DNA from: Nostoc sp. PCC 7120 = FACHB-418
Lineage (GTDB): Bacteria; Cyanobacteriota; Cyanobacteriia; Cyanobacteriales; Nostocaceae
Length of the DNA stretch: 32,000 bases
Direction of reading: 5' to 3'
Assembly (NCBI RefSeq): GCF_000009705.1
Contig: NC_003272.1
Span: forward strand, 5,400,001 to 5,432,000
Below the pieces are notes generated by a model. The model worked only from the letters and a program-made list of their open reading frames with translations, was not told the DNA's origin and did no database searches. The first letter of the stretch is position 1. Each line of letters begins with the position of its first letter. A program made the position numbers and the translations under genes. This document shows positions 4,429 through 28,559 of the stretch, in pieces.

Positions 4429-4513
4429 AATGGCAATTTATGCAAACAATTTAGGGATCAGAGTGTCTTTTCTTCCAGGTGATTCAGTAATAACCCAACG
4501 GTACGCGCAGGAT

Positions 4514-6199: not shown

Positions 6200-6217
6200 T
6201 TGTTGTGATAAAAAGTT

Positions 6218-6940: not shown

Positions 6941-7122
6941 CGTTCCCAAAATAGCTCATTTCCAACTGGCAACTCACAACCAAAAACCGCATTTTTAGTA
7001 AATATACTCAGCAATTTGTTCAACCTGAGCATTTTTCCCATTTGCAACTTGATACAAATATTTTTAGCAGCAAATTTTCCTACTGCCAGCTTAGTTTACA
7101 TAAATTTTGTCTGTTGACATCT

Positions 7123-7151
7123 TGCACACAATAAGGTATGGCGCATATAAT
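7123..7151 (+). promoter_or_regulatory. Candidate sigma70-type promoter in the long region upstream of nblA
   Basis: TGCACA (7123-7128), a 17-nt spacer, then a perfect TATAAT (7146-7151). If used, it would give nblA a leader of about 345 nt. This is a pattern match only. Confidence 0.25.
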
Positions 7152-7502
7152 GCGATATTACTACCATTAATTTACTACCTAGTCATTAACGTCTCCCGCC
7201 AGAGAACAGTTTTGAATAGGTAGTCAATTTTAGGTATTGAACCTGCTGTAAATTTATTAAATCGATGAATTTCCCCGAAATCTGCTCTAGCAGACTTGGG
7301 TTATATACCAGTAGGCTCAGGTGCAAAACAACAAAGCACAAATTTTACCCATTAAGGATATAGGCAATCTGTCAAATAGTTGTTATCTTTCTTAATACAG
7401 AGGAATAATCAACAATATGGGGCAGGTACTAACTAAAGTCCTATGCCTGTGGGGCTTCTGTAACCGACATAACCTTTACGCGTTGTCTTTTAGGAGTCTG
7501 TT

Positions 7503-7700
7503 ATGAACCAACCAATCGAATTGTCATTAGAACAACAATTCAGCATTCGCTCATTTGCCACCCAAGTGCAGAATATGAGCCATGATCAAGCCAAAGATTT
7601 TTTGGTCAAACTTTACGAACAAATGGTTGTCCGTGAAGCCACATATCAAGAGCTACTCAAGCATCAGTGGGGCTTAGATTCTGGTTCCACTCCGGCATAG
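7503..7700 (+). CDS. nblA: Phycobilisome degradation protein NblA
   Basis: The 65-aa product MNQPIELSLEQQFSIRSFATQVQNMSHDQAKDFLVKLYEQMVVREATYQELLKHQWGL... has the size and two-helix layout of NblA, and matches my memory of the Anabaena/Nostoc NblA sequence. AGGAG lies 8 nt upstream of the ATG. Confidence 0.93.
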   Translation: MNQPIELSLEQQFSIRSFATQVQNMSHDQAKDFLVKLYEQMVVREATYQELLKHQWGLDSGSTPA

Positions 7701-8160
7701 AGTTGCTATGTGTCGCAGTGGGCGACCTCCTTCTCTTGCTCAGTTCCAGGGAGGAAAAGAGCTGGGGATGCTGGGGCGTCAACTTCCGACCGGAACAAGT
7801 TCACATTGACTAAAAAGAAATCACTCAAAACTAAACATGGCATCTACTTTCAGATGTTAAGTACTGTCGTCTTTTAACTTGTTTAGCTTTTTGTTTACCA
7901 AGCTGATAGTATTAGCAAACTTCAACCTTTAAGTGACTACTGGTTAAATCAATGCGTACCTTTGGCTTTTAAATACCGTAAGTACTCTTAGACACCCTAT
8001 TTTTATGCTTAACCAGGAGCGTATTTTTCACTAACACTGATGATCATTATATTTATTGCCAATAATAGTTACAACTACGTTATATATTTTATTTATAAAA
8101 ATTTACATATTTAGACAAGGTGTTTCACTAATACAGATGTTACAGATAATCCAGACAGTC

Positions 8161-9723: not shown

Positions 9724-10091
9724 AGAAAATTGGACTCCAATATTCAACAATGGTGAACTACACCTGTACTGAAAAAGTGCAGAGTAGTATTAGCAGGATG
9801 ATAAGCAGTTTTCTGTTAGCGGTAGCGGGGTGTTTAGCCCGTAAAATTCACCAGCCTCTCACCTCTAAACCTCTAGTCCCCTTTTCATTTATCCTGATAT
9901 ACACAGTTCATTATGGATACTCAGGATATGAGTACTAAGTTCTGTGGTTGAGGAGCGCAAACAAAAAATAATAGGTAGATGTATCCTAATCTTCTGCACT
10001 GGGATTTTGATGTAGTTCTAGTTTGCCCAATTTTTCTGTGGTAGATAACTTAAGGGATGTCAAAATTATGGGGATTGGCGAAAAGATACCC

Positions 10092-15181: not shown

Positions 15182-15908
15182 CAGAAAAGAAGCGATCGCC
15201 TGTATCAGTATCATAGATGCGATCGTATCTTTTTGTTTACTGGAGTTTTACCTTACGTCGTAACACGTTAGTATTACAGAGAAGAAAAATAAGTCTGCCT
15301 AATCCAGCTTTACTCTCAAAACACCTATGTGCAGGGTTGAAGCTAGGAACGGAGGAACCAAGTTTGGGGCGTATCTGCCAAAAAAGCTGAAGCTAAAGTA
15401 TGAAAAAGAGATTTCAAATTTTAGACTTAGAGCATTTAGAGAAGGACATCTCTCAGTCCTAGCCCGTCAGCTAACTTCGTAGGCATTGAGAGGAGATTGA
15501 ACGAGCAGCATTTATACAAATAATGCCTGTCGTCAGTATCCTTGGCTGGTAAACTTACGCTTCGTTTTACCTGTCCTCGCACTGGAAGTCAGGGTTTTAT
15601 AGTCTGTGTTTCTAGGGGCTGAGGTCGGATTAGTTGCCTTGAGGTACAGTTGATCATGTTTTTGAAGATAAATCATCCCTTTACTTTCATCACAGTAGAT
15701 ATTGTTAGCGCCACCATAAATAGGATTGAAAGTTTGTTTTTTCCCATAAAGAAGATTCCAACACAGTACTGATAAAACTTTGATCAAACTGTAGAGAAAA
15801 CATCTGTCATTGTGCTAGGTGTAAATTTTTGATGCAGCTTGGTTGAATTAGTTTGTCAGAAAAACTCAGCATAGAAGCACGTATTCGTAAACATTACAGG
15901 AGAATAAA

Positions 15909-16151
15909 ATGTCTATTAAAAATCGCAACTTTTTCACTGATGTTAACTTTTTACCTGAGCATAAATTTAAGTTAATTGGAGAGTTTGCCGGGAAAAAGCT
16001 CTTACTAATTGGCAGAACTAATGCCTATGGCGATCCCATCGTAGCAGCAAGCCATAGTAGTGAACCTAACCACGAAGATTTATACGCTTATGACTTATAC
16101 GAGTTGATGAAGTGTAATCACGAACTAGTTAATCTCACTGGAGAAATCTAG
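15909..16151 (+). CDS. Hypothetical small protein (80 aa)
   Basis: ATG start preceded by ACAGGAGAATAAA (GGAG 8 nt upstream). No recognisable motif. It lies within the AT-rich, gene-poor stretch. Confidence 0.35.
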   Translation: MSIKNRNFFTDVNFLPEHKFKLIGEFAGKKLLLIGRTNAYGDPIVAASHSSEPNHEDLYAYDLYELMKCNHELVNLTGEI

Positions 16152-16695
16152 TCAATTAATGGGGTGGGGTGATAGGGATAATTTATTTTTTGGTGTTCCC
16201 TTACACCGTTCTAGTCATACACATCAATAATTAGTGCCGATCTTTTGTTATGTGGCGTGTTTTCGTGTAAAGCAACACACCATTTGAGGTTTTATAGGTG
16301 TAAATATTAACACCTATAAAATCCCAATCACTGAAATAAAAATATTGTAAAGTTTTGTAACATACCGGATAACTTTGTCCTACTTCTACAGAAATACCTA
16401 TAGAACCGCAACTGGAATCTCCATATACCGCGTTCAATAACATCAGAGATATAACAGAATTTATGTTGTATCTCTGCCTTCCTTATAAGCTTGTATGGTT
16501 TGCTAACTGCTAACACCTAACGGTAAAACCGAAAAGATATGCAAGTTAAATGTACGACAGTTTATGTATTTCTTAAATATTAATTAAAGCTATGTGTTAT
16601 GAAAGTGCCAATAGTAGATTTATTTCATCACCATCTGGGTTTTTTGTTACCAATAAAGGATAAACAATAATTATAAAATACCTGGAAATAGGGTA

Positions 16696-17016
16696 ATGAA
16701 TAATCCAATTCTCGCAACTGCTAGTGTTGTAATTGCTTTCGGTATCATTGTTGGTGTCTTCATTGTGGGATTAATTTATATCCAACGGCGACGACAAGCA
16801 GTAGACAGTTTGATCCGTATTAATAACGTGGTTGGTTGTTTTGGGATTGTGGAAGTTCCCATAAACCAAAATAGTCCAGGAAAAGTACGGATCAATCTCA
16901 AAGGTTCTCTAGTAGACTTTGTAGCTTTCACCGATGAAATTCATCAATTTAATCAAGGTGATTCTGTTGTTATCGTGCGAATTAAGGGAAATAAGGTTTG
17001 GGTGGTTAATGTTTAG
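16696..17016 (+). CDS. NfeD-family membrane protein (YuaF/YqiJ-like)
   Basis: One N-terminal TM helix (ILATASVVIAFGIIVGVFIVGLIYI), followed by a short beta-rich C-terminal domain GIVEVPINQNSPGKVRINLKGSLVDFVAFTDE...GDSVVIVRIKGNKVWV typical of the NfeD OB-fold. It sits directly upstream of the flotillin genes, as in the Bacillus yuaF-floT pair. Confidence 0.8.
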   Translation: MNNPILATASVVIAFGIIVGVFIVGLIYIQRRRQAVDSLIRINNVVGCFGIVEVPINQNSPGKVRINLKGSLVDFVAFTDEIHQFNQGDSVVIVRIKGNKVWVVNV

Positions 17017-17063
17017 CAAGAGAGGGCAGGAGGCAGTTTATAGTGCGGTTTAGAAGGATATTC

Positions 17064-17112
17064 TGATGACGGTTGACAGTTGAGAAATTACTAATGACTC
17101 TTGATAAATAAC
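17064..17112. repeat. Heptamer-periodic STRR-like array filling the NfeD-flotillin spacer
   Basis: TGATGAC GGTTGAC AGTTGAG AAATTAC TAATGAC TCTTGAT AAATAAC: seven 7-nt units ending 1 nt before the flotillin ATG. Confidence 0.7.
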
Positions 17113-17113
17113 T

Positions 17114-18457
17114 ATGAATTTAATTAAACAAGAATTAGCGACTGTAACAGTAGCACAAGTTGATCCGAATACACCTGCTACTAACAAAGAAAATAATGGC
17201 ATAGAAAGTCTACTTTATGGTGGTCTGCCTATTGCTCTATCTATTTTTGGTGCATTTGTACTTGTGTGGTTTATCAAGTCTTTTTTATGTATTTGTAAAC
17301 CCAACGAAATCTTGATACTTTCGGGACGCAAATGGCGGACTAAAGATGGACAAGAGATGGGTTATCGAGTGTTATTAGGTGGGCGCGCCATTCGGATTCC
17401 TATAGTGGAAACGGTAAAACGGATGGATGTAACAACTATGCCGGTAAGGGTGGAAGTGCGGAATGCTTACGCCAAAGGGGGAACGCCTTTAAATATTCAA
17501 GCGATCGCCAATGTGAAAATTTCCTCAGATCCGGTGGTTGTCGGTAACGCCATTGAACGCTTTTTAGACCGCGATCGCTCGGAATTGGCTCGTGTTTCCC
17601 GCGAAACCCTAGAAGGCTATCTCCGGGGTGTTGTCGCTACCCTCACACCAGAAGAACTCAACGAAGACCGCCTGAGTTTTGCCCAACGTATCGCCTCCGA
17701 TGTCAGCCGCGACCTTAGTAAACTGGGATTGCAACTGGACACCCTAAAAATTCAAAGCGTTTCTGACGATGTAGACTATCTCAAATCTTGGGGACGTAAA
17801 CAAATTGCCCTGGTGATTCGAGACGCAGAGATTGCCGAATCCAACGCACTCACCCAAGCCGAACAAATCGAAGCCCAATCCGAAGAATATGCCCAAGTCG
17901 CCAAAACCCAAGACAAAATCATTGTGTTGGAGAAAGAAAACGAACTCCGCACCATCAAAGCCCAGCTAGAACAGAGAGCCAAGTCTGAAGAAGAAATTAC
18001 CACGGCGGCTGCACAAGAAAAGAAAGCCAAAGCCGAACAAGTCTTACAAGTACTACGGGCTGAGTTAGAACGCCTACGCCTACAAGCCGATGAAGTCCTA
18101 CCCGCCGAAGCCCGTCGCCAAGCCCAAGAACTCCGAGCCAAAGGGGAAGCAGCTTTCCTAGAAGAAAATGCCAAAGCCGCAGCGTTAGTTAACGACATTC
18201 TTTCCCAAGTTTGGCAGCAAACCGGCAGCGACGCTTCTAAGTTATTCCTCATTCAACAAATTGAAACCGTTCTCCAAGAAGCAGTGCAGATTCCTAAACG
18301 TATTCACCTAGAGAAGGTAAATGTGATTGATAACGGCGATGGCAAATCCGTAGCCAGCTTGGTAAATATTTACCCCGAAATCGTGCTGCAATTCCTAGAA
18401 AACGTTAATCGTACCCTGGGTATTGATGTTACAGGGGCGTTGGGGAGTGGGGATTAG
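17114..18457 (+). CDS. Flotillin-like SPFH/Band-7 protein, paralog 1
   Basis: N-terminal hydrophobic segment LLYGGLPIALSIFGAFVLVWFI, then an SPFH core (ILILSGRK...GYRVLLGGRAIRIPIVETVKRMDV...NIQAIANVKI), then a long Ala/Glu/Gln/Lys coiled coil (EQIEAQSEEYAQVAKTQ...AEARRQAQELRAKGEAA) as in FloT/FloA-type flotillins. Confidence 0.88.
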   Translation: MNLIKQELATVTVAQVDPNTPATNKENNGIESLLYGGLPIALSIFGAFVLVWFIKSFLCICKPNEILILSGRKWRTKDGQEMGYRVLLGGRAIRIPIVETVKRMDVTTMPVRVEVRNAYAKGGTPLNIQAIANVKISSDPVVVGNAIERFLDRDRSELARVSRETLEGYLRGVVATLTPEELNEDRLSFAQRIASDVSRDLSKLGLQLDTLKIQSVSDDVDYLKSWGRKQIALVIRDAEIAESNALTQAEQIEAQSEEYAQVAKTQDKIIVLEKENELRTIKAQLEQRAKSEEEITTAAAQEKKAKAEQVLQVLRAELERLRLQADEVLPAEARRQAQELRAKGEAAFLEENAKAAALVNDILSQVWQQTGSDASKLFLIQQIETVLQEAVQIPKRIHLEKVNVIDNGDGKSVASLVNIYPEIVLQFLENVNRTLGIDVTGALGSGD

Positions 18458-18516
18458 GGACTGGGGACTGAGGATTAGGGCAGGAGTAGGAACTAATTAC
18501 CAATTACCACTAACAA
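18440..18516. repeat. STRR heptamer array of 11 units spanning the 3' end of flotillin 1
   Basis: TTGGGGA GTGGGGA TTAGGGA CTGGGGA CTGAGGA TTAGGGC AGGAGTA GGAACTA ATTACCA ATTACCA CTAACAA. The first units are the complement of the CCCCA(A/G)T class. The array encodes the last residues (LGSGD) and the stop codon of flotillin 1. Confidence 0.8.
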
Positions 18517-18522
18517 ATGTAC

Positions 18523-18542
18523 AGACGCGATTAATCGCGTCT
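18523..18542. repeat. Perfect 20-bp palindrome between the two flotillin genes
   Basis: AGACGCGATTAATCGCGTCT is its own reverse complement. It lies 17 nt upstream of the flotillin 2 ATG and could act as an RNA hairpin or as a binding site for a dimeric protein. Confidence 0.5.
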
Positions 18543-18558
18543 CTAACAACTAACAATT

Positions 18559-19827
18559 ATGGAAATTATCGCTTTACTTTTAGGAATTTTTGGAACTGGA
18601 ACCGCCGCAGGTTGGTGGGTGATTCGCAACTTGTACTATATCTGCCAACCTAGCGAAGTGCTGATTTTTGCGGGGAGTCGGACTCAGGTTGATGATAGGC
18701 GATCGGTTGGTTATCGCTTGGTGAAAGGTGGTAGTAGTATTCAAATCCCTCTGTTGGAAAAAACTTTCCGCATGGATTTGACTAACATGATTATTGAACT
18801 GAAGGTGTCCAACGCCTACTCAAGAGGTGGGATTCCTTTAACGGTGGAAGGAGTGGCAAATATTAAAATTGCTGGTGAAGAACCGACAATTCACAATGCC
18901 ATTGAGCGACTTTTGGGTAAAAGCCGCAAAGATATTGAACAATTAGCCAAGGACACATTGGAAGGTAATCTGCGGGGGGTATTGGCGAATCTCACGCCAG
19001 AACAGGTGAACGAAGATAAAATCACCTTTGCTAAAACTTTGTTGGAAGAAGCCGAAGATGATTTAGAAAAACTAGGATTGGTACTAGACAACCTGCAAAT
19101 CAAGAATATTTTTGATGAGGTTCTTTACCTAGATTCTATTGGACGCAAACAACAGGCAGAGTTGCTGCGAGATGCGCGGATAGCTGAAGCGGAAGCTAAA
19201 GCCCAAGCGATCATTAAATCTTCAGAAAATCTCCGCATTACTAAACTGAGACAAATTGAACGGGATTTGCAAATTGCTAAAGCCGAAGCAGAACGCAGAG
19301 TTAGAGATGCACTCACCAAGCGTGTTGCTGTGATTGCAGAGGTGGAATCGGTGGTCAATTCCCAAATTGCCAAGGTGCAGGCAGAAGTAGCAGTGCAAAC
19401 AGAACGGATTATTCAAGTAGAAAACCAACTACAAGCGGATATAGTTGCCCCAGCCGAGGCAGAATGTCACAGTGCGATCGCTCAAGCTAAGGGAGATGCT
19501 GCCAAAATCATCGAAGAAGGCAAAGCCCAAGCCGCAGGAACCCAGCGTCTAGCTGAATCTTGGCAAAATGCAGGCGCATCGGCGCGAGAAATCTTTATCT
19601 TCCAAAAACTCGAACCATTATTGAAAATGATGGCTGCGGGAGTACCTGAGGTAGAAGTAGAAAATTTAACTGTGATTGATGCGGCTAATGGTGGTGGTGT
19701 GCCGAAAATAGCCTCTTTAATTGAGCAATTACGTCAAACTACTGGTGTCGATGTTGCTCAAGTGATCAATCAGCTCAAGTCTGATGGTAAAAATGGCAAG
19801 GTTGGCTCAAATTTGGATCAAGGTTAG
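18559..19827 (+). CDS. Flotillin-like SPFH/Band-7 protein, paralog 2
   Basis: Same architecture as paralog 1: an N-terminal hydrophobic segment, the SPFH core VLIFAGSR...GYRLVKGGSSIQIPLLEKTFRMDL...VEGVANIKI, and a coiled coil. My hand alignment gives about 45 percent identity to paralog 1 over the SPFH core. Confidence 0.88.
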   Translation: MEIIALLLGIFGTGTAAGWWVIRNLYYICQPSEVLIFAGSRTQVDDRRSVGYRLVKGGSSIQIPLLEKTFRMDLTNMIIELKVSNAYSRGGIPLTVEGVANIKIAGEEPTIHNAIERLLGKSRKDIEQLAKDTLEGNLRGVLANLTPEQVNEDKITFAKTLLEEAEDDLEKLGLVLDNLQIKNIFDEVLYLDSIGRKQQAELLRDARIAEAEAKAQAIIKSSENLRITKLRQIERDLQIAKAEAERRVRDALTKRVAVIAEVESVVNSQIAKVQAEVAVQTERIIQVENQLQADIVAPAEAECHSAIAQAKGDAAKIIEEGKAQAAGTQRLAESWQNAGASAREIFIFQKLEPLLKMMAAGVPEVEVENLTVIDAANGGGVPKIASLIEQLRQTTGVDVAQVINQLKSDGKNGKVGSNLDQG

Positions 19828-19841
19828 TAAGAAAGTCAAGC

Positions 19842-20486
19842 ATGGATGAATTAACAGCACTTGTGAAACAAACCTGTCAGCATCCAAGGGGGAGTATTGA
19901 ACGCCAAAAAGGACTGCATGAAATTATCTGGCGGATTCAGCAGTCTGGTAAATTGTTTCGGGGTACGGGTGTACCTAATGCAGAGGAAGCATTGCAGAAA
20001 ACATGGCTGTATTTTTGCCTCAATCTCTGCGAAGCTACAACCAGTGAGGAACCATACAATTCCAGCCAAGGAAGTGTGATTACTTGGCTGAATGCCTACT
20101 TGCGGTACAGGCTGAAAGATATCGTTGTTCCTAATCAAAAAATCATTTATTCTTCGTCAGATGAAAATGGCGAAGAAATAGATCCCACAGATTTGATTCC
20201 CGCACGACCAGAACCACCACCCATTCTAGAGGAAATTCAGGAATGGTTAAAACAAGAAGCTCATACTTTACGCCGTATTTACGTAACCAATCGCCCAGAT
20301 ATCAATTGTTTGGTGTTGATTGAACGTCGCTTACCGCCAGAAACTTCTTGGAAGGACTTATCTCAAGAGTTTGATGTCTCCATTGCAACCCTGAGTGGTT
20401 TCTATCAACGCCATTGTTTTCCCCGCCTCCTAAATTTCGGCATATCCCAAGGTTATATTGATCATGAGTATGAGTTACCTAAGTGA
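19842..20486 (+). CDS. Sigma-70-family-like (ECF-sized) transcription factor
   Basis: At 214 aa it has a region-2-like segment (EEALQKTWLYFCLNL...VITWLNAYLRYRLKD) and a C-terminal region-4-like HTH (LVLIERRLPPETSWKDLSQEFDVSIATLSGFYQRHCFPRL). The ATG lies 14 nt after the flotillin 2 stop. The assignment rests on motif resemblance only. Confidence 0.6.
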   Translation: MDELTALVKQTCQHPRGSIERQKGLHEIIWRIQQSGKLFRGTGVPNAEEALQKTWLYFCLNLCEATTSEEPYNSSQGSVITWLNAYLRYRLKDIVVPNQKIIYSSSDENGEEIDPTDLIPARPEPPPILEEIQEWLKQEAHTLRRIYVTNRPDINCLVLIERRLPPETSWKDLSQEFDVSIATLSGFYQRHCFPRLLNFGISQGYIDHEYELPK

Positions 20487-21630
20487 ACAGCAAAGCATAT
20501 CTGTACCGATTCCAGAAAGTTTTCGCCAAATAGCTCTGGAATTTGCCCAAGAACAACCAATTTCTACAAAAGCGAAACAAGTATATTTAAATACATTAGC
20601 TGTACAAGTAGTTAATAGCTATTTAGCTATGTTAGATATCCCCACAGAACTAGAAGCTAGCTATAGTTGGCATCCACGGGGGCGCTTGACGGCTGATGTT
20701 GCAGATTTACTATTAACTGGTGTGGGACGTTTGGAATGTCTGCCGATGCGGACGGGCGATCGCACTTGTAAAATTCCCCCAGAAGTTTGGGATAATCGCA
20801 TTGGTTATGTTGTTGTGGAAATTAATCACACTTGTAAGGAAGGGAAAATTAGAGGGTTTGTCACCAGTGTCAACACTCCAGAAATTACCCTTGAACAACT
20901 GCGATCATTAACAGTATTAATTGAACATTTGCATCTAGTACATTTACGGCAATGGCTAGAAGGCATCTACACAAATAATTGGCAAAGTATAGAAGAATTA
21001 TCAAGCCAAAGAAGCACTCAATTAGCCTTTCGTTCTAAACGTGTGCGGGGTTGGGAATTTGACAATCCCGAAAAAGCTTGGCAAGTAGTTGAGCAATTAT
21101 ATCCTGCTCACAGTTGGGAAAAAAATTTACCGCCGGAACTATTAGCCAGTTTTCCTTGGAGAAGATTAGGCGATATAGAAGTATCTCCCACTACTAATAA
21201 TTACACTAAATTTACTGAAGCGATCGCTCATCTTTTAAAAACAACTCCAGACGAAGAAACTCGCTGGACTTTGGCAGAAATTTTGTGGACTCTTGCACCC
21301 AATCATCCTGCTGTCAGTGCTAGACGCATCATTGATTTAGGAATGCAGCTGGCAGGCCATCCTGTCGCTTTAATGGTAGCAATTTTAGCCAAACCGGATA
21401 GGAATGTGGCTGTCTTATTGCGCGTGTATCCAATGGGAAATCAGCCTTATTTACCACCAGGATTGCAATTAGCAGGACTAGATGAAAATGGCAAATCATT
21501 TTTAGAAGTCCAAGCACGAGAAAATAAAGATGATTACATCCAGTGCAAGTTTTGTGCAGAATTCGGCGAAAAATTTCAAGTTCGGGTTAGTATGAATAAT
21601 GTAAGTTTTACAGAAAATTTTGTCATTTAA
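20464..21630 (+). CDS. DUF1822 family protein
   Basis: The N-terminal pattern KAKQVYLNTLAVQVVNSYLAMLDI...GRLECLPMRTGDRTCKIPPEVWDNRIGYVVVEI...IRGFV follows the conserved layout I recall for cyanobacterial DUF1822 proteins. The ATG at 20464 overlaps the upstream gene by 23 nt; the ORF-track start at 20458 is TTG. Confidence 0.68.
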   Translation: MSMSYLSEQQSISVPIPESFRQIALEFAQEQPISTKAKQVYLNTLAVQVVNSYLAMLDIPTELEASYSWHPRGRLTADVADLLLTGVGRLECLPMRTGDRTCKIPPEVWDNRIGYVVVEINHTCKEGKIRGFVTSVNTPEITLEQLRSLTVLIEHLHLVHLRQWLEGIYTNNWQSIEELSSQRSTQLAFRSKRVRGWEFDNPEKAWQVVEQLYPAHSWEKNLPPELLASFPWRRLGDIEVSPTTNNYTKFTEAIAHLLKTTPDEETRWTLAEILWTLAPNHPAVSARRIIDLGMQLAGHPVALMVAILAKPDRNVAVLLRVYPMGNQPYLPPGLQLAGLDENGKSFLEVQARENKDDYIQCKFCAEFGEKFQVRVSMNNVSFTENFVI

Positions 21631-21657
21631 TAGACAAATTATTATAGGGAAGAAACA

Positions 21658-24600
21658 GTGGGTAAGCTGGTTATCTTCGAGATTGGAGAAGGCAGTTTTC
21701 AGCAGGGGTTTCCTGTGAAAATTAGAATTGGGGAAGAGCGTAAACCTCATTCTACGGAAATTCTCGGCAGATTGCCACCAGCATTAACAATTCCTCAACA
21801 CTATTATGAATGGCAATCAAGTTATCGTCACTTGCCAGCAAATTGGTTAATTACTGTTCCCGAAACTCAAATTACTAATGTATCCACCATAGAGACTTGT
21901 CATCATGCTGCTCAAAGATTTCAATTTAGTTTTAATGAATGGTTAAATCAACCAGTAGTTAGACAATTGGAACGGCAATTATTACAAAAAGTTGGTGATT
22001 GGCAGGATATACGCTTTATTTTACAAACACAAGATTCCTTACTAAGACGCATTCCTTGGCATCTATGGGATATTTTTCATGATATCCATCCCCGTCCAGA
22101 AATTATAGTTAGTTCTGAATATGAACCGTCTAAAAAACAATTAATAAATCCAGTGAAAATTCTGGTAGTTCTTGGCAACAATCGAGGTATTGATATTCAA
22201 CAGGATTTAGAAACAATCAAAAAATTACCTAGTGCCATTATTGAACTGTTGCAAGAACCATCACGCCAACAACTTAGAGATAAATTATGGACTCAATCTT
22301 GGGATATTTTCTTTTTTGCAGGGCATAGTTGTAGTCATCAAGATGATATTTCTGGACAAATTCAAATTAATGCCAAAGAAACTTTATCACTAGATAGTCT
22401 GCGTCACACACTCCGCCACGCTGTGAAGAAAGGATTAAAATTAGCTATATTTAATTCTTGCGATGGTGTAGGATTAGCACGCAATTTGGCTGATGTGCGG
22501 ATTCCTTATACAATTGTTATGCGGGAACCTGTTCCCGACATAGTAGCACAACATTTTTTAAGATATTTCTTAACAGCATTTGCATCAGGCGAGTCTTTAT
22601 ACGCATCAGTCCAACAAAGTCGCGCTCGCCTGCAAGAAGAATTAGAAAACGATTATCCTTGCGCTTCCTGGCTACCTGTGATTTTTCAAAATCCAGCAGC
22701 AGCAGAATTAAAATATCCCCAACCTAGTAATTGGGCAAAAATAGGATTTAAGGCAGCTATTTTTATAGGTTTGTTAGTTACTGGGAGTTATATTTTTACA
22801 ACAGTTGTTAATGAGTGGAGGTTTCGCGGACGCTTTAGTGATGGTAATAATCTTTTAGTGAAAACATTTACAAATACTCATAAACAAGATGGCATCAAAG
22901 CGTTTCAGCAAGGTAATTACCAATTAGCTCAAGAGAAGTTTCAAGCGTCCTTACGAGAGTATTATAATGACCCAGAAACATTAATCTATTTTAATAATGC
23001 TAAAGTTGCCAATCAGCCGATACTAAAAATTGGTGTTGCTGTCCCTATCGGGACTAACTCCAATGTCGCTCAAGAAATTTTGCGCGGAGTTGCACAAGCA
23101 CAACAAGAAATAAATCATCAAGGTGGCATTCACGGCAAGTTTTTAAAAGTTGTTCTTGCCAACGATGATAATAAACCAGAAATTGCCAAACAAGTAGCCC
23201 AGAGATTTGTTCAAGATGCAGATATATTAGCAGTAGTAGGACATAACAGTAGTGATGCAAGTGTCCCTGCATCTGATATTTATCAGGCAGGAAAATTAGT
23301 CATGGTTTCACCAACTAGCAGTTCTACAAGATTAACAGATCGTCCTCGTCTTGATAGTCATGGTAATTATATTTATCGCACAATTATTAGCTTTAATGTG
23401 ATTGCCGAAAGTTTAGCTGAATATGCCAAAACTGCTGGTATTAATAGGGTAATGATTTGTAGCGATTCACAAGCCGCAGATCAGTCTTTTGAACAAGCAT
23501 TTGTGAATGCAATAATTTACAAACGCTTGCAACATATTAATAATATAAATTGTGATTTCGCCTCAGAAGATTTTCGTCCAGAGACTATTGTAAAAGATGC
23601 GATCGCCCAAAATGTAGATGCTATTTTACTCAATCCCCAAGTTGATAGAATGAGTAAAGCGGTGGAGATAGGGAAATTTAATCAAGGTAAGGTACGATTA
23701 TTAGGAAATCCCAGCTTACAAACTAAAACCATACTCGATGCAGGCGATGTAATTAAGGGAATGGTGATAGCAACTCCTTGGTTAGCAGATGTTTCTCCTA
23801 ATCAAGAATTTGTGCAGAATGCCAAAAATCTCTGGCGTGAATCAGATTTAATTACTTGGCGTACAGCTACCGCCTTTGATGCTACCAAGGCTATCGCCGC
23901 AGCCTTGAAACAGGAAGACGACACCAGAAGCGGTATCCAAAAAGCCTTGGCGCGAAATTTTTCTTTACAAAGTGCGACAGGAACAATTCAGTTTTTATCT
24001 TGGGGCGATCGCAAAGGCGATCGCGTGGGCAATGCTATCTTAGTAGAAGTAAAACCAGACTCCAACGCACCCAGTGGCTACAGTTTCGTCCCGAAAAACT
24101 CTCTACAACATAGGATCAGTTTGGGAGATAAAATCTTAATCCAAGATAACCCTAGTCATGAAAAGCAACTAGGTGTAGAAGCTTTTGCTGTAGGTAATTA
24201 TCAACAGGCGATCGCCCTATTTCAACTATCTCTGCAAAAGGTATTTAATGACCCAGAAACACGCATATATTTACAAAATTCTTTGGCTGCTCGTAGTGGT
24301 AAAAGCTTGAGAATAGCGGTTAGTGTCCCTATTGGTAGTAACTTGAATGTTGCGAAAGAAATACTCCAGGGTGTAGCTCAAGCTCAAGATGAAATCAATC
24401 GCCAAGGTGGGATTCAAGGACATTTACTACAAGTAGAAATTGCCACCGATGATAATAACCCAGAAATTGCTCAAAAATTAGCAAGTTACTTTGTGACCGA
24501 TAAGCAAATTTTAGCTGTTATTGGTCATAATGCCTCAGACGCTTCTGTAGCCGCTTGTCCTATTTATCAAGCAGGTAAACTAGTTAATATTTCCCCCACC

Positions 24601-25398
24601 AGCTTTTCTGTAAAATTATCAGGATGTGGTGCGTATATATTCCGTACCGCCCCTAATATTAGACTTATTGCTGATATTCTTTCCAACTATGCGATTAAAA
24701 CAGTAAAGACAAAAAACTTAGCAATTTGCGTAGATGAACAGGCTATAGATAATCAATCATTTCGAGATGAATTTACCTCCGCTATCATTATTTATGGCGG
24801 AAATCTTGTGAATATCCCCTGTGATTTTTCTGCACCTGATTTTAACCCCAATCAAGTAATTACTGAGGCGATTAGTAGTGGTGCTAATGGCTTAGTTTTA
24901 GCACCTCATATAGATAGAATTAACAAAGCTTTAGATATAGCAGCAGCCAATAAAGGTAGATTGAGACTGTTTGCTAGCCCCACACTATACACATCCCAAA
25001 CTTTACAACAAGGGCAAGCCGACGTTAACGGTTTAATGTTAGCAGTCCCCTGGCATCCAGACGGGAATACACAAAATAATTTTAGCCAGAAAGCTCAACG
25101 CCTTTGGGGAAATTCTGTAACTTGGCGTTCCGCTACCAGTTATGATGCAACCCTAGCCGTAATTGCAGGTTTGCAGCAAAGTAAAAATCGTGAAGAATTA
25201 CAAAGAGTTCTACGTAATCCTAAATTTTATGCTGTGGGTGCCACCGGCAAAATTCGCTTTTTCCCATCAGGCGATCGCTATCTCAAAAACGATACTATCT
25301 TAGTAAAGATTCAAGCAAACAAAGCATCTGCAACTGGCTATGACTTTTTTTTGTTAAATGCAGCCAGAAACCAGATTTCCAAAACAAATAGGTTTTAA
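21658..25398 (+). CDS. CHAT-domain (caspase-fold) protease fused through one TM helix to two tandem periplasmic LivK/type-1 solute-binding domains
   Basis: GTG start preceded by AGGGAAG. The catalytic dyad candidates are His223 (FFFAGHSCSH) and Cys268 (AIFNSCDGVG). The TM helix is IGFKAAIFIGLLVTGSYIFTTVV (residues 362-384). Two modules of ~400 aa (residues ~411-815 and ~838-1233) align with each other and carry PBP1 motifs (IGVAVPIG, ILAVVGHNSSDASV, IYQAGKLVMVSPTS). Confidence 0.88.
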   Translation: MGKLVIFEIGEGSFQQGFPVKIRIGEERKPHSTEILGRLPPALTIPQHYYEWQSSYRHLPANWLITVPETQITNVSTIETCHHAAQRFQFSFNEWLNQPVVRQLERQLLQKVGDWQDIRFILQTQDSLLRRIPWHLWDIFHDIHPRPEIIVSSEYEPSKKQLINPVKILVVLGNNRGIDIQQDLETIKKLPSAIIELLQEPSRQQLRDKLWTQSWDIFFFAGHSCSHQDDISGQIQINAKETLSLDSLRHTLRHAVKKGLKLAIFNSCDGVGLARNLADVRIPYTIVMREPVPDIVAQHFLRYFLTAFASGESLYASVQQSRARLQEELENDYPCASWLPVIFQNPAAAELKYPQPSNWAKIGFKAAIFIGLLVTGSYIFTTVVNEWRFRGRFSDGNNLLVKTFTNTHKQDGIKAFQQGNYQLAQEKFQASLREYYNDPETLIYFNNAKVANQPILKIGVAVPIGTNSNVAQEILRGVAQAQQEINHQGGIHGKFLKVVLANDDNKPEIAKQVAQRFVQDADILAVVGHNSSDASVPASDIYQAGKLVMVSPTSSSTRLTDRPRLDSHGNYIYRTIISFNVIAESLAEYAKTAGINRVMICSDSQAADQSFEQAFVNAIIYKRLQHINNINCDFASEDFRPETIVKDAIAQNVDAILLNPQVDRMSKAVEIGKFNQGKVRLLGNPSLQTKTILDAGDVIKGMVIATPWLADVSPNQEFVQNAKNLWRESDLITWRTATAFDATKAIAAALKQEDDTRSGIQKALARNFSLQSATGTIQFLSWGDRKGDRVGNAILVEVKPDSNAPSGYSFVPKNSLQHRISLGDKILIQDNPSHEKQLGVEAFAVGNYQQAIALFQLSLQKVFNDPETRIYLQNSLAARSGKSLRIAVSVPIGSNLNVAKEILQGVAQAQDEINRQGGIQGHLLQVEIATDDNNPEIAQKLASYFVTDKQILAVIGHNASDASVAACPIYQAGKLVNISPTSFSVKLSGCGAYIFRTAPNIRLIADILSNYAIKTVKTKNLAICVDEQAIDNQSFRDEFTSAIIIYGGNLVNIPCDFSAPDFNPNQVITEAISSGANGLVLAPHIDRINKALDIAAANKGRLRLFASPTLYTSQTLQQGQADVNGLMLAVPWHPDGNTQNNFSQKAQRLWGNSVTWRSATSYDATLAVIAGLQQSKNREELQRVLRNPKFYAVGATGKIRFFPSGDRYLKNDTILVKIQANKASATGYDFFLLNAARNQISKTNRF

Positions 25399-25496
25399 TT
25401 TTACATATTGTGTGATGCTGAATTGAGAAAGTTGCATTCCTCCTACCCCACCGGGGAAGCAAACTACACGTAGTATCCCGTAAACAAGGGGTTATT

Positions 25497-26954
25497 ATGT
25501 CGGAAACTGTAGAAATCGAACGTCATCGAGCTGCGATCGCTCGCACGGAAATCTCTCGTCCTGTACGATTGGCTATAGAATGGGCAATCCTGAACCCAGA
25601 CAAGACTTTTTTTGACTATGGCTGTGGTTATGGTGGCGATGTCCAGCGTGTAGCTAACCTTGGCTACACCAGTACAGGTTGGGATCCGTACTACTATCCT
25701 GATGCAGCCATTAACCCCGCCGATGTGGTGAATTTGGGTTACGTCCTCAACGTCATCGAAGACCAAGAAGAACGCCGCCAAAGCCTCATCCAAGCCTGGG
25801 AACTCACTCGCAACGTTTTAATCGTCGCCGCCCAAGTATTAATTAACGCTCCCAGTAAAGCTCAACTGGCTTACAGTGACGGTATTGTCACCAGTCGTAA
25901 TACTTTTCAAAAATATTACGAACAACAAGAACTGAAAAAATATATTGATGAAGTCTTAAACGTTGAGGCTGTCCCTGTGGCGCTTGGGGTTTATTTTGTC
26001 TTCCGTGATGAAGCCGAAAAAGAAAGCTTCAAAGCCATCCGTTTCTTTTCTCGCACCTCTACACCGCGAGTCCGCATTCCGGTAAAACGGTTTGAAGACT
26101 ATCAAGAACAACTCGCGCCCCTCATGGAATTTTTCACCAAACGGGGTAGACTGCCAGTAAAAGGAGAACTAGCCACCGCACCAGAATTACTGGGTGAATT
26201 TGGCAACTTCCGCCGGGCTTTCGCAGTTGTCCTGCAAGCCACCGATGAGGCAGAATGGGATGCGATCGCCTATCGTCGTTCTTTAGATATTCAAGTTTAC
26301 CTTGCCCTCACCCACTTTGATAAACGTCCCAAATTCTCCCAACTAGCGCCAGAAATGCGCCACGACATCAAAGCTTTCTTTGGCAGCTACGAGGAAGCCT
26401 GTAATGTTGCCGACCAAAAACTCTTTAGTTTAGGTCAACCAAAAGTAGTCCAGACAGCCTGTGACAAAAGCAAAATCGGTAAACATACACGAGGCGCTTT
26501 ATACGTCCACGTTTCTGCATTAGCAGCCCTTGACCCCTTGCTACGAATTTACGAAGGTTGTGCGAGCCGTACCATTGGGCGTGTCGATGGAGCTACCCTA
26601 ATCAAATATTACACCGACCAACCGCAAATATCCTATCTGTTTTATCCAGACTTCGACACAGACCCCCACCCATCCTTAAAAGCCAGTATCACAATTGACT
26701 TAAAAACACTGTATGTAACTCACCGCGACTATAGCACCAGAGCCAATCCACCTGTACTTCACCGTAAGGAAACTTTTGTTACTCCCAACTATCCCCTGTA
26801 TGAACAATTTGCTAAACTCACCCAACAAGAGCAGGAATTAGGACTACTCCAACAGAAAAGCGAAATTGGTACTCGTGAAGGTTGGGAAAAATGCCTCGCT
26901 GCTCACGGTGTAGAAATTAGGGGACATGAAATTCATGTGATTCGGGAAGATTAA
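25497..26954 (+). CDS. Homolog of the DNA phosphorothioation-associated putative methyltransferase family
   Basis: The N-terminus RHRAAIARTEISRPVRLA...FFDYGCGYGGDVQRV...GWDPYY (a SAM motif I-like DYGCGYGGD), together with the C-terminal GALYVHVSAL...LLRIYEGCA...ISYLFYPDFDTDPHP...NPPVLHRKETFV, matches my memory of this TIGRFAMs family. No dnd genes are in the window. Confidence 0.6.
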   Translation: MSETVEIERHRAAIARTEISRPVRLAIEWAILNPDKTFFDYGCGYGGDVQRVANLGYTSTGWDPYYYPDAAINPADVVNLGYVLNVIEDQEERRQSLIQAWELTRNVLIVAAQVLINAPSKAQLAYSDGIVTSRNTFQKYYEQQELKKYIDEVLNVEAVPVALGVYFVFRDEAEKESFKAIRFFSRTSTPRVRIPVKRFEDYQEQLAPLMEFFTKRGRLPVKGELATAPELLGEFGNFRRAFAVVLQATDEAEWDAIAYRRSLDIQVYLALTHFDKRPKFSQLAPEMRHDIKAFFGSYEEACNVADQKLFSLGQPKVVQTACDKSKIGKHTRGALYVHVSALAALDPLLRIYEGCASRTIGRVDGATLIKYYTDQPQISYLFYPDFDTDPHPSLKASITIDLKTLYVTHRDYSTRANPPVLHRKETFVTPNYPLYEQFAKLTQQEQELGLLQQKSEIGTREGWEKCLAAHGVEIRGHEIHVIRED

Positions 26955-27050: not shown

Positions 27051-28559
27051 ATGAGAGAAGTTCAAGCACTGCGACAAGCCTTTCAAAGTCGCAAAATGGG
27101 AGCGCTACTACTGCTAGGTTTTGCATCTGGGTTGCCTTTGTTCTTGACTAGTAGAACATTGCAGCTATGGATGCAGGATGCCAAAGTTGATTTAGGAAAA
27201 ATCACCTTATTTGGGTTGTTGGCTTTGCCTTATTCCCTAAAATTTCTGTGGTCGCCCTTATTAGATAGATTTGTCCCACCACTTTTAGGAGCTAGACGGG
27301 GTTGGTTAATATGCACCCAAATTGGGTTAACATTAGCGATCGCTGCCTTAGCATTACAACAACCATCTCAAAGTGACCAAGTACTGCAAATCCTGGCTAT
27401 CAACTGTCTCATCATTACTTTTTTGAGCGCTACCCAAGACATCGCCGGAGATGCTTACCGTACCGATATTTTAAACCCCCTCGAAGCTGAACCTGGTGCA
27501 TCAGTTTGGGTGCTAGGTTATCGCATAGCCTTGTTTATCACCAGTTCCCTAGCGATAGTTTTAGCCGACTATATTCCCTGGAATGGCGTTTACTTACTTA
27601 TGGCTGTTTTCATGGCGGGGAGTATTTTAACTACCTTGTGGTCGCCGCCAGAACCAGAAATCCGCAACGCTATTGAAAAGTATGCACCTATATCTGTTAA
27701 AGACGTTATTTTTATCGTCTTAATCACAGTCTTAGTTGCGGGATTAATTGGCGGTGTCTTTGTCGGTTATATTGCTCTGCCTGTATTTTATTGGTTATTG
27801 GCGAGTTTAATAGTCGCTTGGATTGTCACCTCCTGGCTATTACCCATAGAACTTTTAGGAGAAGTCACAGAAGATAGTCCTCCCCAAAATTTGCAAGCTG
27901 CAATTTTTCTCCCCTTCAAAGAATTTTTTCACAGATTTGGCTTAACTCAAGCCAGCGTCATCCTGATTTTTATTATCCTTTATAAATTAGGTGACTCCCT
28001 AGTAGGTATTACCGCCAACCTGTTCCTGCGAGAAATTGCTTTTACCAAAACTGAGATTGGGGCAATTCAGGCTGGTATGGGTTTTATCGCCACAACTATC
28101 GGCGTATTAGCTGGTGGCGTAATCATGACGAAAATCCACCTCAATCGCAGTTTGTGGATCTTTGGTATTCTTCAATTACTGAGCAACTTAGGTTATTATG
28201 CACTAGCCGTTGCTGGCAAAAATTATTCACTTCTAGTCTTGGCAGTGAATATCGAAAACTTCAGTGCAGGATTAGTGACAGTTGCTACAGTAGCATTCTT
28301 AATGAACCTTTGTAACCATCGCTTTACTACTACTCAATTCGCTTTATTCTCTAGCTTAATGGCTATTAGTAGAGACGTTTTATCTGCACCAGCAGGAGAT
28401 TTGGCTAAAGCCACAGGCTGGCCGGCATTTTTCTTGCTTACCTTAGCAGCAGCATTACCTGGATTGCTGCTTTTGCCTGTTGTCGCCCCTTGGAATCCTA
28501 AACCAGTGGCAATAAATAGACCAGGACTTGATGACGAGGATGTATGGGAAACCAAGTAG
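27051..28559 (+). CDS. ampG: AmpG-family muropeptide MFS permease
   Basis: LLLLGFASGLPLFLTSRTLQLWMQDAKVDLGKITLFGLLALPYSLKFLWSPLLDRFVPPLLGARRGW aligns closely with the E. coli AmpG N-terminus. It has multiple TM segments throughout and is 502 aa long. Confidence 0.88.
   Translation: MREVQALRQAFQSRKMGALLLLGFASGLPLFLTSRTLQLWMQDAKVDLGKITLFGLLALPYSLKFLWSPLLDRFVPPLLGARRGWLICTQIGLTLAIAALALQQPSQSDQVLQILAINCLIITFLSATQDIAGDAYRTDILNPLEAEPGASVWVLGYRIALFITSSLAIVLADYIPWNGVYLLMAVFMAGSILTTLWSPPEPEIRNAIEKYAPISVKDVIFIVLITVLVAGLIGGVFVGYIALPVFYWLLASLIVAWIVTSWLLPIELLGEVTEDSPPQNLQAAIFLPFKEFFHRFGLTQASVILIFIILYKLGDSLVGITANLFLREIAFTKTEIGAIQAGMGFIATTIGVLAGGVIMTKIHLNRSLWIFGILQLLSNLGYYALAVAGKNYSLLVLAVNIENFSAGLVTVATVAFLMNLCNHRFTTTQFALFSSLMAISRDVLSAPAGDLAKATGWPAFFLLTLAAALPGLLLLPVVAPWNPKPVAINRPGLDDEDVWETK

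Follow-up and report, generated by a model that had tools for sequence, protein, structure and literature searches.

A predicted ligand-sensing membrane protease of the EACC2-CHAT family with tandem type-1 periplasmic binding modules, encoded in a conserved three-gene cassette of cyanobacteria

The subject of this study is a gene in a 32,000-nucleotide (nt) stretch of the genome of Nostoc sp. PCC 7120 = FACHB-418, also called Anabaena PCC 7120 (contig NC_003272.1, positions 5,400,001 to 5,432,000 of the forward strand). The whole stretch is hereafter called the window, and its first letter is position 1 of the coordinates given below (Table 1). The open reading frame (ORF) starts with a GTG codon, and its product of 1246 amino acids (aa) corresponds over its full length to BAB76230.1 (100% identity), named in the database as 'MULTISPECIES: ABC transporter substrate-binding protein [Nostocaceae]'; homologs share the start position and the opening 'MxKLVIFEIGEGSF'. 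BAB76230 appears to be a sensor protease, in which an EACC2-like alpha+beta domain and a CHAT domain of the caspase/separase fold are followed by a single transmembrane (TM) helix and two type-1 periplasmic binding protein (PBP1) modules. Its gene is the last in a cassette of three, behind the genes for a divergent sigma-70-family protein (BAB76228) and a DUF1822 protein (BAB76229); from the order of these accessions, we infer the gene names alr4529, alr4530, and alr4531. Overall, it is proposed that the cassette encodes a ligand-sensing membrane protease that acts on the DUF1822 protein or on itself to release the sigma-like protein, a proposal which in our judgement has about an equal chance of being right or wrong. 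The original prediction for this ORF had described the same overall architecture of CHAT, one TM helix, and two type-1 PBP modules, and that architecture is confirmed here.

In the Pfam scan, BAB76230 matches CHAT at residues 180-361 (E 1.6e-13), as had been anticipated, and this match is followed by two matches to Peripla_BP_6 (E 4e-57) and two to ANF_receptor (E 2e-22). A model of residues 1-400, built by AlphaFold2 (AF2) with 37 homologs (predicted local distance difference test (pLDDT) score 85.4, predicted template modelling (pTM) score 0.82), contains an alpha/beta domain spanning residues 118-344 and a long helix at residues 359-391, which is the TM segment. The alpha/beta domain is preceded by an N-terminal domain of three strands (3-9, 17-26, and 31-39) and three helices (44-57, 78-96, and 99-112), and residues 1-115 have no match in Pfam. 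It had been claimed that the protein has no signal peptide, and residues 3-39 are indeed modelled as beta-strands of a globular domain. When the model was compared with the PDB by Foldseek, the matches included human separase (PDB code: 9hma, E 2e-9), a SAVED-CHAT filament (PDB code: 8tl0, E 2e-9), Csx29/TPR-CHAT (PDB codes: 8eey, 8d9f, and 7y84, E 3e-9 to 1e-7, TMq 0.52-0.57), DdvA (PDB code: 8rot, E 1.8e-5), and the caspase Dronc (E 2e-4). Since separase, SAVED-CHAT, Csx29, DdvA, and caspases are all among the matches, the assignment of BAB76230 as a caspase-like protease is solid at the level of the fold, and proteolytic activity is predicted.

The candidate catalytic residues, His223 (codon 22324-22326, in 'AGHS') and Cys268 (codon 22459-22461, in 'NSCDG'), are found at exactly the codons that the original prediction had assigned to them. 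Both residues are invariant in 23 homologs with tandem modules, in 37 homologs when single-module forms are included, and also in 52 distant proteins that share only the N-terminal module. In its fold and its His-Cys dyad, BAB76230 conforms to the CHAT/clan CD cysteine proteases. Between CHAT and the TM helix, a juxtamembrane segment, 'ASWLPVIFQNPAA.ELKYP' (residues ~336-361), is conserved as well.

Residues 1-361 were searched against 1.84 billion representative proteins, and the clusters that share this module numbered 2436 with a threshold of E 1e-3 and 1516 with a threshold of E 1e-30. In almost every case, the match extends from residue 1 to about residue 350, in host proteins of 373 to 1747 aa. 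In a sample scanned with Pfam (52 of the top 150 module-sharing proteins), CHAT is present in 52/52, and the partner domains include Pentapeptide (nine proteins), CHASE2 (eight), NACHT (six), Peripla_BP_6 (four), and nSTAND1 with WD40 (three), with 89 Pfam families in all. Such a variety of partners would be expected if a constant output module were combined with interchangeable sensors. A constant module of EACC2 and caspase with a highly variable C-terminus, either extracellular with TM helices or intracellular, was described by Kaur, Iyer, Burroughs & Aravind in 2021 (eLife, PMC8195603). Two architectures from the supplements of that study, EACC2+CASPASE+CHASE2+TM and EACC2+CASPASE+nSTAND1+BetaPropeller (1758 aa), were both recovered among the module-sharing proteins, the nSTAND1+beta-propeller form at about 1750 aa. 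In BAB76230, an alpha+beta domain stands directly before CHAT, as judged by the AF2 fold and the architectures and not by the EACC2 seed of those authors, and the C-terminal region is highly variable in the 52 sampled proteins. The original prediction had presented the CHAT-PBP protein as a solitary novelty; instead, it is one member of a very large EACC2+CHAT family. In the databases, nearly all of the CHAT-TM-PBP proteins, which number in the thousands, bear the name of an ABC transporter or branched-chain amino acid substrate-binding protein, and 'CHAT domain-containing' or 'Transmembrane sensor' is the name of rare entries; the naming problem is systematic and due to the stronger PBP match.

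The one hydrophobic span that had been reported for BAB76230 is the sole Kyte-Doolittle peak in the protein (1.99 at about residue 366). Among homologs it keeps its position but not its sequence, which is what a lipid-facing helix would show. In the sum of 23 homologs, the net charge is +67 in the 15 residues before the span and +7 in the 15 residues after it. A folded N-terminal domain of 360 residues with no signal peptide is very unlikely to be exported. On the other side of the span, each module carries a pair of Cys residues (601/632 in module 1 and 1024/1055 in module 2) that is invariant at the same alignment columns, also in single-module homologs, and Cys601 and Cys632 are the only Cys residues in module 1. 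Invariant pairs of this kind are typical of an extracytoplasmic disulfide, and one disulfide is predicted in each module. Five single-module loci have a further gene, a few kilobases (kb) upstream, for an anchored PBP protein of 453-475 aa with no CHAT domain, in which a K/R-rich N-terminal tail and one hydrophobic anchor are followed by an 'S.G..LL' motif, a TPR-like hairpin, and a PBP module that is 46-50% identical to module 2 and to single modules. By this layout, the stand-alone copies look like a classical signal-anchored periplasmic protein carrying the same ectodomain. Because the N-terminus is folded and has no signal, the family shows a charge bias, the Cys pairs are invariant, and the stand-alone copies are signal-anchored, an N-in/C-out topology of BAB76230 with both binding modules in the periplasm is supported. 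The arrangement proposed originally, with CHAT in the cytoplasm and tandem Venus-flytrap (VFT) domains in the periplasm, is consistent with the last three of these observations.

The two modules align with each other at 45% identity over 412 columns (E 2e-111), which bears out the internal duplication noticed earlier by eye, the repeat being slightly longer than was then described and reaching the end of the protein (Table 1). Each repeat opens with a conserved 'R.S.G(E/D)K.L' and continues with a TPR-like hairpin. This hairpin is the least supported element of the earlier observation in BAB76230 itself, where TPR_2 matches residues 837-860 at 20.2 bits, under the 27-bit cutoff; TPR hits are listed for many homologs. 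The LivK/type-1 fold claimed for both modules is recovered by the Pfam matches given above, and the best Peripla_BP_6 stretch, residues 457-799, covers profile positions 3-339 of 343 and includes both lobes. In the PDB, the modules match 4mlc (E 6e-22), and then LivJ and LivK, with E from 6e-22 to 1e-14. Among 23 tandem proteins, the average identity is 48% among copies of module 1, 50% among copies of module 2, and 42% between modules 1 and 2. A rough neighbour-joining tree places module 1 and module 2 largely apart, with the single modules of Anabaena/Dolichospermum inside the module 1 group of Nostocales and most other single modules near module 2. These results are consistent with an old duplication, both copies of which were kept under constraint, and with a loss of module 2 in some lineages.

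The binding pocket was mapped from the sequence of Escherichia coli LivJ, whose numbering was checked against the PDB alignment; the identity is ~22%, and lobe-2 positions in this alignment are uncertain. The lobe-1 loops NxNVA, GHN(S/A)SD, and PTS hardly vary among module 1, module 2, and the single forms. At this level of identity, Ser79 of LivJ, which lies within the lobe-1 loops, corresponds to S532/S960 and is kept in 64/66 modules, Ala100 corresponds to an invariant Thr, and Thr102 corresponds to Ser in module 1 and Phe in module 2. Seven positions of the pocket region differ systematically between modules 1 and 2, such as Ser555 vs Phe983 and Gln661 vs His1084. Since the lobe-1 loops are conserved and the lobe-2 pocket positions differ systematically, both modules probably still bind something, though probably not in the same way. 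It had been suggested that the divergence of the modules reflects either two different ligands or a heterodimer-like clamp within one chain; this idea fits the lineage-consistent differences of the pockets and the separately anchored second modules, and is proved by neither. Because anchored modules are encoded separately in single-module loci, cooperation of two ectodomains is suggested, in cis in BAB76230 and possibly in trans elsewhere. The stand-alone anchored modules could act in trans and take the part that the second module has in the tandem form, and they favour the clamp alternative without proving it.

The neighbouring genes bear on the output of the system. The longest ORF of the DUF1822 gene begins with TTG at 20458 and the database form with ATG at 20464, the 388-aa form being exactly the database sequence; the stop codon of the sigma-like gene (20484-20486) overlaps this start region, and the gap between the DUF1822 gene and the CHAT gene is 27 nt. 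The three genes occur in the same order at homologs in a Fischerella-type genome, Anabaena cylindrica, Trichocoleus, and Microcoleus (loci L001 and L003-L006). In all, 80 cyanobacterial genome loci were retrieved via relatives of the DUF1822 protein, and their ORFs were scored with profiles from our own alignments. Retrieval was aimed at the DUF1822 subfamily nearest to that of the window, and the counts cover the orthologous system and not all DUF1822 genes. The sigma-like gene lies immediately upstream of the DUF1822 gene in 77/78 loci where the contig permits the test, and an EACC2-CHAT-PBP gene lies within 4 kb in 70/70 judged loci (directly downstream on the same strand in 62, convergent in five, and 2-4 kb away in three). 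Sixteen tandem-module and forty-two single-module forms of the CHAT-PBP protein were found among the loci, and the cassette spans Nostocales, Oscillatoriales-type, Leptolyngbya-type, and some unicellular genera. Neighbouring genes for DUF1822 and sigma-fold proteins also belong to the EACC2-caspase systems, in which DUF1822 proteins were described as TPR or TRADD-N+TPR partners of EACC2-caspase proteins (PMC8195603). The original prediction had given the CHAT gene without this cassette; although its architecture and proposed topology stand up to the tests applied here, the conserved upstream genes, which are probably the carriers of the output, the larger family, and the prediction published in 2021 were all overlooked.

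Other features around the cassette vary among the loci. In five loci of Calothrix/Dulcicalothrix (L077, L080, L081, L084, and L085), the cassette is adjoined by a second DUF1822 + EACC2-CHAT cassette on the opposite strand, whose CHAT protein of 576-790 aa has no PBP module; the CHAT-PBP gene of these loci is convergent with its own DUF1822 gene and not co-oriented. Scans of positions 16000-26000 for promoters and terminators gave no excess over shuffled sequence (25 vs 24.2 and 11 vs 8.6, respectively) and are uninformative on operon boundaries. In 76 loci, the sequence ahead of the sigma-like gene was searched for a promoter of the kind that an autoregulated sigma would use, with a single recurrent block as the result, 'AAAACTGAATTGCAAT-N10-AAAAATGTAA'. 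This block, 'AAAACTGAATTGCAAT - ~10 variable nt - AAAAATGTAAAGTTTTGTAAAGATATAGGCGGATT', is found about 180 nt upstream of the sigma-like gene in 16-20 related Rivularia/Calothrix genomes (L045-L071) and does not occur in the window; it might serve the cassette as a promoter or operator, or it could reflect mere shared ancestry. In the window, an NfeD gene and two SPFH/Band_7 (flotillin-like) genes stand directly upstream of the sigma-like gene, with a gap of 14 nt. Membership of these three genes in the cassette was considered and rejected, as they accompany it in only 12/80 loci, all from a subset of Nostocales, and are lineage-specific neighbours; their synteny was noted at L001, L007-L013, L020, L023, L024, L029, and L049. 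In Trichocoleus (L005), a PspA/IM30 gene is upstream of the cassette in their place. Both NfeD/SPFH and PspA/IM30 are membrane-stress-related families, which may or may not be a coincidence.

The 214-aa product of the first gene is, with moderate confidence, a very divergent sigma-70-family protein. In its AF2 model (pLDDT 77.7), helical domains at residues 3-95 and 128-202 are joined by a disordered linker. All of the 50 top Foldseek matches in the PDB are sigma-70-family proteins, the best being the extracytoplasmic function (ECF) sigma factor SigL (PDB code: 6dv9_F, E 0.011, prob 0.93), and sigmaE (PDB code: 1or7), SigK, AlgU, CnrH, and SigW are among the further matches. As regards the ECF type, the sigma2-linker-sigma4 fold is found, with weak statistics and a uniform list of matches, and a sequence match to regions 2 and 4 is not found. 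Many homologs are named 'sigma-70 family RNA polymerase sigma factor' at NCBI, and the corresponding neighbour protein was called an ECF sigma by Kaur et al. (PMC8195603).

A possible mechanism of the system can be described as follows. One or two small molecules would bind the tandem periplasmic flytrap modules, which may work together within one chain in the way that VFT dimers work in other receptors. Binding would alter the conformation or the oligomeric state across the single helix, and the cytoplasmic CHAT protease would be turned on. The protease would then cut a cytoplasmic partner, most plausibly the DUF1822 protein as the adaptor or inhibitor of the sigma-like protein, or, alternatively, the juxtamembrane linker of the CHAT protein itself. 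The divergent sigma-70-family protein, once freed, would redirect transcription. The DUF1822 protein is a candidate adaptor, sigma inhibitor, or protease substrate in this scheme. A more specific form, a 'receptor caspase' in which the tandem flytraps form an intramolecular heterodimeric clamp on one or two metabolites and directly gate a caspase-fold protease that cleaves the DUF1822 protein and releases sigma, is offered tentatively, as a possible but not a probable solution. Signal-induced caspase activation feeding an ECF sigma was predicted for EACC2-caspase/DUF1822 neighbourhoods by Kaur et al. (PMC8195603). The best experimental precedent is Craspase, in which Csx29, once activated, cleaves Csx30, the inhibitor of a locus-encoded ECF-like CASP-sigma (PMC10028731). 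A second precedent is the single-pass, CHAT-containing anti-sigma DdvA, which controls the ECF sigma DdvS (PMC11506125).

Several results weigh against the proposal. The 214-aa protein has no match in Pfam (E up to 10) or NCBIfam (E up to 1), a profile of 25 sequences of its family found no sigma factor among PDB sequences, and the hhalign alignment with E. coli RpoE is collinear over both domains with a probability of only 0.56%. The fold is the sole basis for the sigma assignment, and the Foldseek support is weak (best E 0.011, TM-score about 0.3), although low TM-scores are expected since the two domains sit on a flexible linker. The DUF1822 protein has no recognisable anti-sigma domain in Pfam or NCBIfam and by sequence no relative in the PDB, only chance-level matches to sirtuins, so that its role as a substrate is a guess. 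The charges that flank the span are balanced in BAB76230 (+1/+1 net), N-in being favoured by the trend of the family only. In the pocket, the residues that hold the amino group in LivJ are not conserved, Tyr202 being replaced by Gln/His and Glu226 by Pro in the uncertain lobe-2 alignment. Finally, a literature search for alr4529, alr4530, alr4531, and BAB76230 found no experiment on any family member and no paper naming alr4531 or alr4529, only alr4530 as a hypothetical protein in a clade-signature protein list of 2010 ('alr4530, Hypothetical (388)', Nostoc/Anabaena sp. PCC 7120; PMC2823733).

Alternative explanations differ in where they depart from this proposal. If the hydrophobic stretch were a buried or peripheral helix, the PBP modules could be cytoplasmic small-molecule sensors like AmiC. 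Cytoplasmic PBP1 sensors do exist (AmiC and LacI-type proteins), and in BAB76230 the span has charge-balanced flanks and is followed by three Arg residues; however, the charge bias of the family, the classical N-terminal signal-anchor of the stand-alone paralogs, the conserved Cys pair of each module, and a span that keeps its position but not its sequence make this topology very unlikely. The similarity to Peripla_BP_6 and LivJ/LivK, and the names given by NCBI and JGI (ABC-transporter or branched-chain amino-acid substrate-binding protein), would suit a membrane-tethered substrate-binding protein that feeds amino acids to an ABC importer, with CHAT as an incidental part. This reading is hardly credible and was rejected, and the label 'ABC transporter substrate-binding protein' is misleading. 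The LivJ-type NCBIfam model NF011933 scores 134 bits against a cutoff of 477 bits, and the models for urea and pyrroloquinoline quinone substrate-binding proteins score about 25 bits against cutoffs above 400. There is no ABC permease or ATPase gene near the BAB76230 gene in the window, nor in the flanks of four related regions, except for an unrelated pair of LptF/G and ABC ATPase genes several kb away (L005). The equivalents of Tyr202 and Glu226 of LivJ appear to be absent, the CHAT dyad is invariant, and the fusion of protease and PBP, with its linkage to the sigma and DUF1822 genes, holds in 70/70 loci.

The other two alternatives accept periplasmic sensing and differ in what the protease does. 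CHAT may cleave only its own chain, freeing the EACC2-CHAT fragment or shedding the ectodomain, with the DUF1822 and sigma-like proteins acting downstream and not as substrates. 'Autopeptidase activation' was indeed proposed by Kaur et al. (PMC8195603), self-cleavage in trans was proposed for DdvA (PMC11506125), and the juxtamembrane segment conserved between CHAT and the TM helix would be a place for it; yet no cleavage site is recognisable from the sequence and self-cleavage was not actually observed for DdvA (PMC11506125), and on balance this version seems decidedly unlikely. The main alternative, somewhat conceivable though improbable, is that the cassette serves a multicellular cyanobacterium in immunity or altruistic death. 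The periplasmic modules would then detect a danger signal, such as lysis products of neighbours or damage to the envelope by phage, and CHAT would cut targets in the cell or switch on a toxic effector, with only a secondary part for the sigma-like protein. Biological conflict is the general frame given by Kaur et al. to EACC-type systems, domains that are characteristic of conflict systems (NACHT, nSTAND1+WD40, and pentapeptide) occur fused to EACC2-CHAT, proteases of the CHAT type work in CRISPR type III-E, in the CBASS-like SAVED-CHAT, and in the defence island of DdvA, and two cassettes lie side by side in some Calothrix genomes. Among six proteins of the region, including the CHAT-PBP, DUF1822, and sigma-like proteins, PADLOC gave no relevant match, its sole match being a marginal and irrelevant one to an SPFH protein (E 0.002). 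The synteny is stable and vertically conserved in 80 species of several orders, unlike variable islands, the neighbours of the cassette are housekeeping genes, and no toxin-like effector gene is conserved alongside, the invariant partners being the sigma-like and DUF1822 genes only. Because there is no PADLOC match, the synteny is stable, and no effector gene is conserved, a role in conflict is disfavoured as the primary function.

Beyond the cassette and its neighbours, the window contains several other features (Table 1). A cyclic di-AMP (c-di-AMP) riboswitch of the ydaO/yuaA leader type (Rfam RF00379) matches the full-length model with 60 bits against a gathering threshold of 38 (E 1e-11); the next ORF on the + strand encodes 80 aa and has no Pfam match, and a terminator-like hairpin with a 13-bp stem lies ahead of the NfeD gene. 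Directly downstream of the CHAT gene is a gene for a DNA-phosphorothioation-associated putative methyltransferase (TIGR04096, E 1e-220), with no dnd genes visible beside it and a major facilitator superfamily (MFS) transporter gene next. Among the 80 loci, only the closest relative (L007) has the TIGR04096 gene downstream of the cassette, and therefore this gene is placed outside the cassette. A eukaryotic-type signalling cluster at 4409-9750 comprises genes for an ABC1 atypical kinase, a PP2C phosphatase, and, on the opposite strand, a Ser/Thr protein kinase; as far as tested, it is unrelated to the CHAT-PBP cassette.

Table 1. Positions of the cassette, of the domains of BAB76230, and of other features; positions refer to the window unless a locus (L) is named.
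Feature	Position	Strand	Description
alr4529 (name inferred), BAB76228	19842..20486	+	gene 1; 214 aa; divergent sigma-70-family protein (ECF-like, sigma2+sigma4), moderate confidence
alr4530, BAB76229	20464..21630	+	gene 2; 388-aa DUF1822 protein, Pfam E 4e-101
alr4531 (name inferred), BAB76230	21658..25398	+	EACC2-CHAT-TM-PBP1-PBP1 predicted sensor protease, 1246 aa
EACC2-like alpha+beta domain, residues 1-115	21658..22002	+	AF2 fold; conserved as a unit with CHAT
CHAT (caspase/separase-fold) domain, residues ~116-350	22003..22707	+	Pfam, Foldseek, invariant dyad
Single TM helix, residues 362-384	22741..22809	+	hydrophobicity; AF2 helix 359-391
Module 1, residues 392-818	22831..24111	+	'RFSDGNNLL' motif, TPR-like hairpin ~411-445, type-1 PBP fold
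Cys601	23458-23460	+	module 1
Cys632	23551-23553	+	module 1
Module 2, residues 819-1246	24112..25395	+	'RISLGDKIL' motif, TPR-like hairpin ~838-872, type-1 PBP fold
Cys1024	24727-24729	+	module 2
Cys1055	24820-24822	+	module 2
Stand-alone anchored module, L005	2234-3634		
Stand-alone anchored module, L037	615-2042		
Stand-alone anchored module, L046	2514-3875		
Stand-alone anchored module, L073	194-1561		
Stand-alone anchored module, L074	4687-6060		
NfeD + two SPFH/Band_7 genes	16696-19827	+	lineage-specific neighbours
c-di-AMP riboswitch	15320-15500	+	Rfam RF00379
ORF after riboswitch	15909-16151	+	80 aa
Terminator-like hairpin	16444-16476		ahead of NfeD gene
Putative methyltransferase	25497-26954	+	TIGR04096
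MFS transporter	27051-28559		
ABC1 atypical kinase	4409-6199		
PP2C phosphatase	6218-6940		
Ser/Thr protein kinase	8161-9750	opposite to ABC1 kinase and PP2C	

The preferred reading, a ligand-gated protease that feeds a sigma-like factor, would have several consequences. Bacterial caspase-fold proteases are outputs of CRISPR and CBASS immunity, and, to our knowledge, their sensor is cytoplasmic or unknown in every characterised case. In BAB76230, a protease of this type appears to be coupled both to a sensor of a classical kind for small molecules outside the cell and to a sigma-like factor of its own, in an arrangement conserved across cyanobacterial orders. If the reading is true, a chemical cue from outside would reach transcription via ligand-gated proteolysis in the cytoplasm, which would be a new route for bacteria, and the receptor would parallel the PBP1 receptors of eukaryotes, with a protease in place of their outputs. 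The system would also give experimenters a first tractable way into the large EACC2-CHAT family that was predicted in 2021. In its more specific form, the 'receptor caspase', it would differ as a transmembrane signalling route from one-component and two-component systems and from classical anti-sigma regulated intramembrane proteolysis, and it would be the first characterised case to stand for the more than 2,000 EACC2-CHAT sensor families of multicellular bacteria. In Anabaena PCC 7120, a genetic model, the hypothesis of sensor, caspase-like protease, and sigma is directly testable. At present, the label 'ABC transporter substrate-binding protein' hides thousands of family members from searches for signalling or protease genes.

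Among known systems, the EACC2-caspase systems of Kaur et al. (PMC8195603) share with the cassette an N-terminal alpha+beta domain with CHAT, a variable C-terminus, and ECF-like sigma and DUF1822 neighbours. They differ in that CHASE2, PDZ, kinase, STAND, and macro domains, among others, are named, whereas a tandem PBP1 ectodomain with TPR-like hairpins is not explicitly described. In the searchable text and 26 supplements of that study, no EACC2-caspase protein has a PBP, Peripla, ANF, or LivK architecture and the alr4529-alr4531 locus is listed under no accession, but the phrase 'several small-molecule-binding domains' may cover the PBP1 form. CHAT and DUF1822 are not mentioned in the ECF reclassification paper. 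Craspase (PMC10028731) likewise has a His-Cys CHAT protease that is allosterically switched by a sensor, and its locus encodes an ECF-like sigma; however, its sensor is the cytoplasmic RNA-guided Cas7-11 complex and not a transmembrane ligand-binding ectodomain, it has no EACC2 domain, and no similarity was detected between Csx30 and DUF1822. DdvA-DdvS of Myxococcus xanthus (PMC11506125, PDB code: 8rot) also combines a single-pass protein, a CHAT domain, and a functional pairing with an ECF sigma. Its topology is inverted, since TPR-CHAT lies in the periplasm and the sigma is held by a zinc anti-sigma domain in the cytoplasm, whereas BAB76230 has a predicted cytoplasmic CHAT, an ectodomain of two PBP1 modules, and no recognisable anti-sigma domain.

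In Anabaena PCC 7120 itself, HetF is a CHAT-type protease that degrades PatU3 (PMC9457339, PMC8406250). It is membrane-associated and belongs to the same protease superfamily as BAB76230, and the NCBIfam model of HetF matches BAB76230 weakly around the dyad (residues 184-275, E 0.0037); however, HetF has no EACC2 domain, PBP modules, or sigma/DUF1822 partners, and it resembles BAB76230 in the catalytic core only. LivJ, LivK, and HAAT-family binding proteins (PDB codes: 1z15, 1usg, and 4mlc) are alike to the modules in fold and sequence, with the equivalent of Ser79 and the lobe-1 loops, but they are free periplasmic proteins encoded with transporter genes, whereas the modules of BAB76230 are membrane-tethered and fused to a protease and appear to have lost the equivalents of Tyr202 and Glu226.

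VFT receptors include BvgS-type kinases with two tandem periplasmic VFTs, natriuretic-peptide receptor guanylyl cyclases, class C G-protein-coupled receptors, and the amino-terminal domains of ionotropic glutamate receptors. They resemble the receptor predicted for BAB76230 in having extracytoplasmic clamshells of the PBP fold, one or a few TM helices, a cytoplasmic output, and tandem or dimeric flytraps that act in pairs. Their outputs are a kinase, a cyclase, a G-protein coupler, or a channel, in contrast to the predicted caspase-fold protease of BAB76230, and the flytraps of BvgS are of PBP type 2, whereas the modules of BAB76230 are of type 1. Overall, the tandem VFT form of EACC2-CHAT sensor proteases belongs to a class of systems that was predicted in 2021 and is not categorically new.

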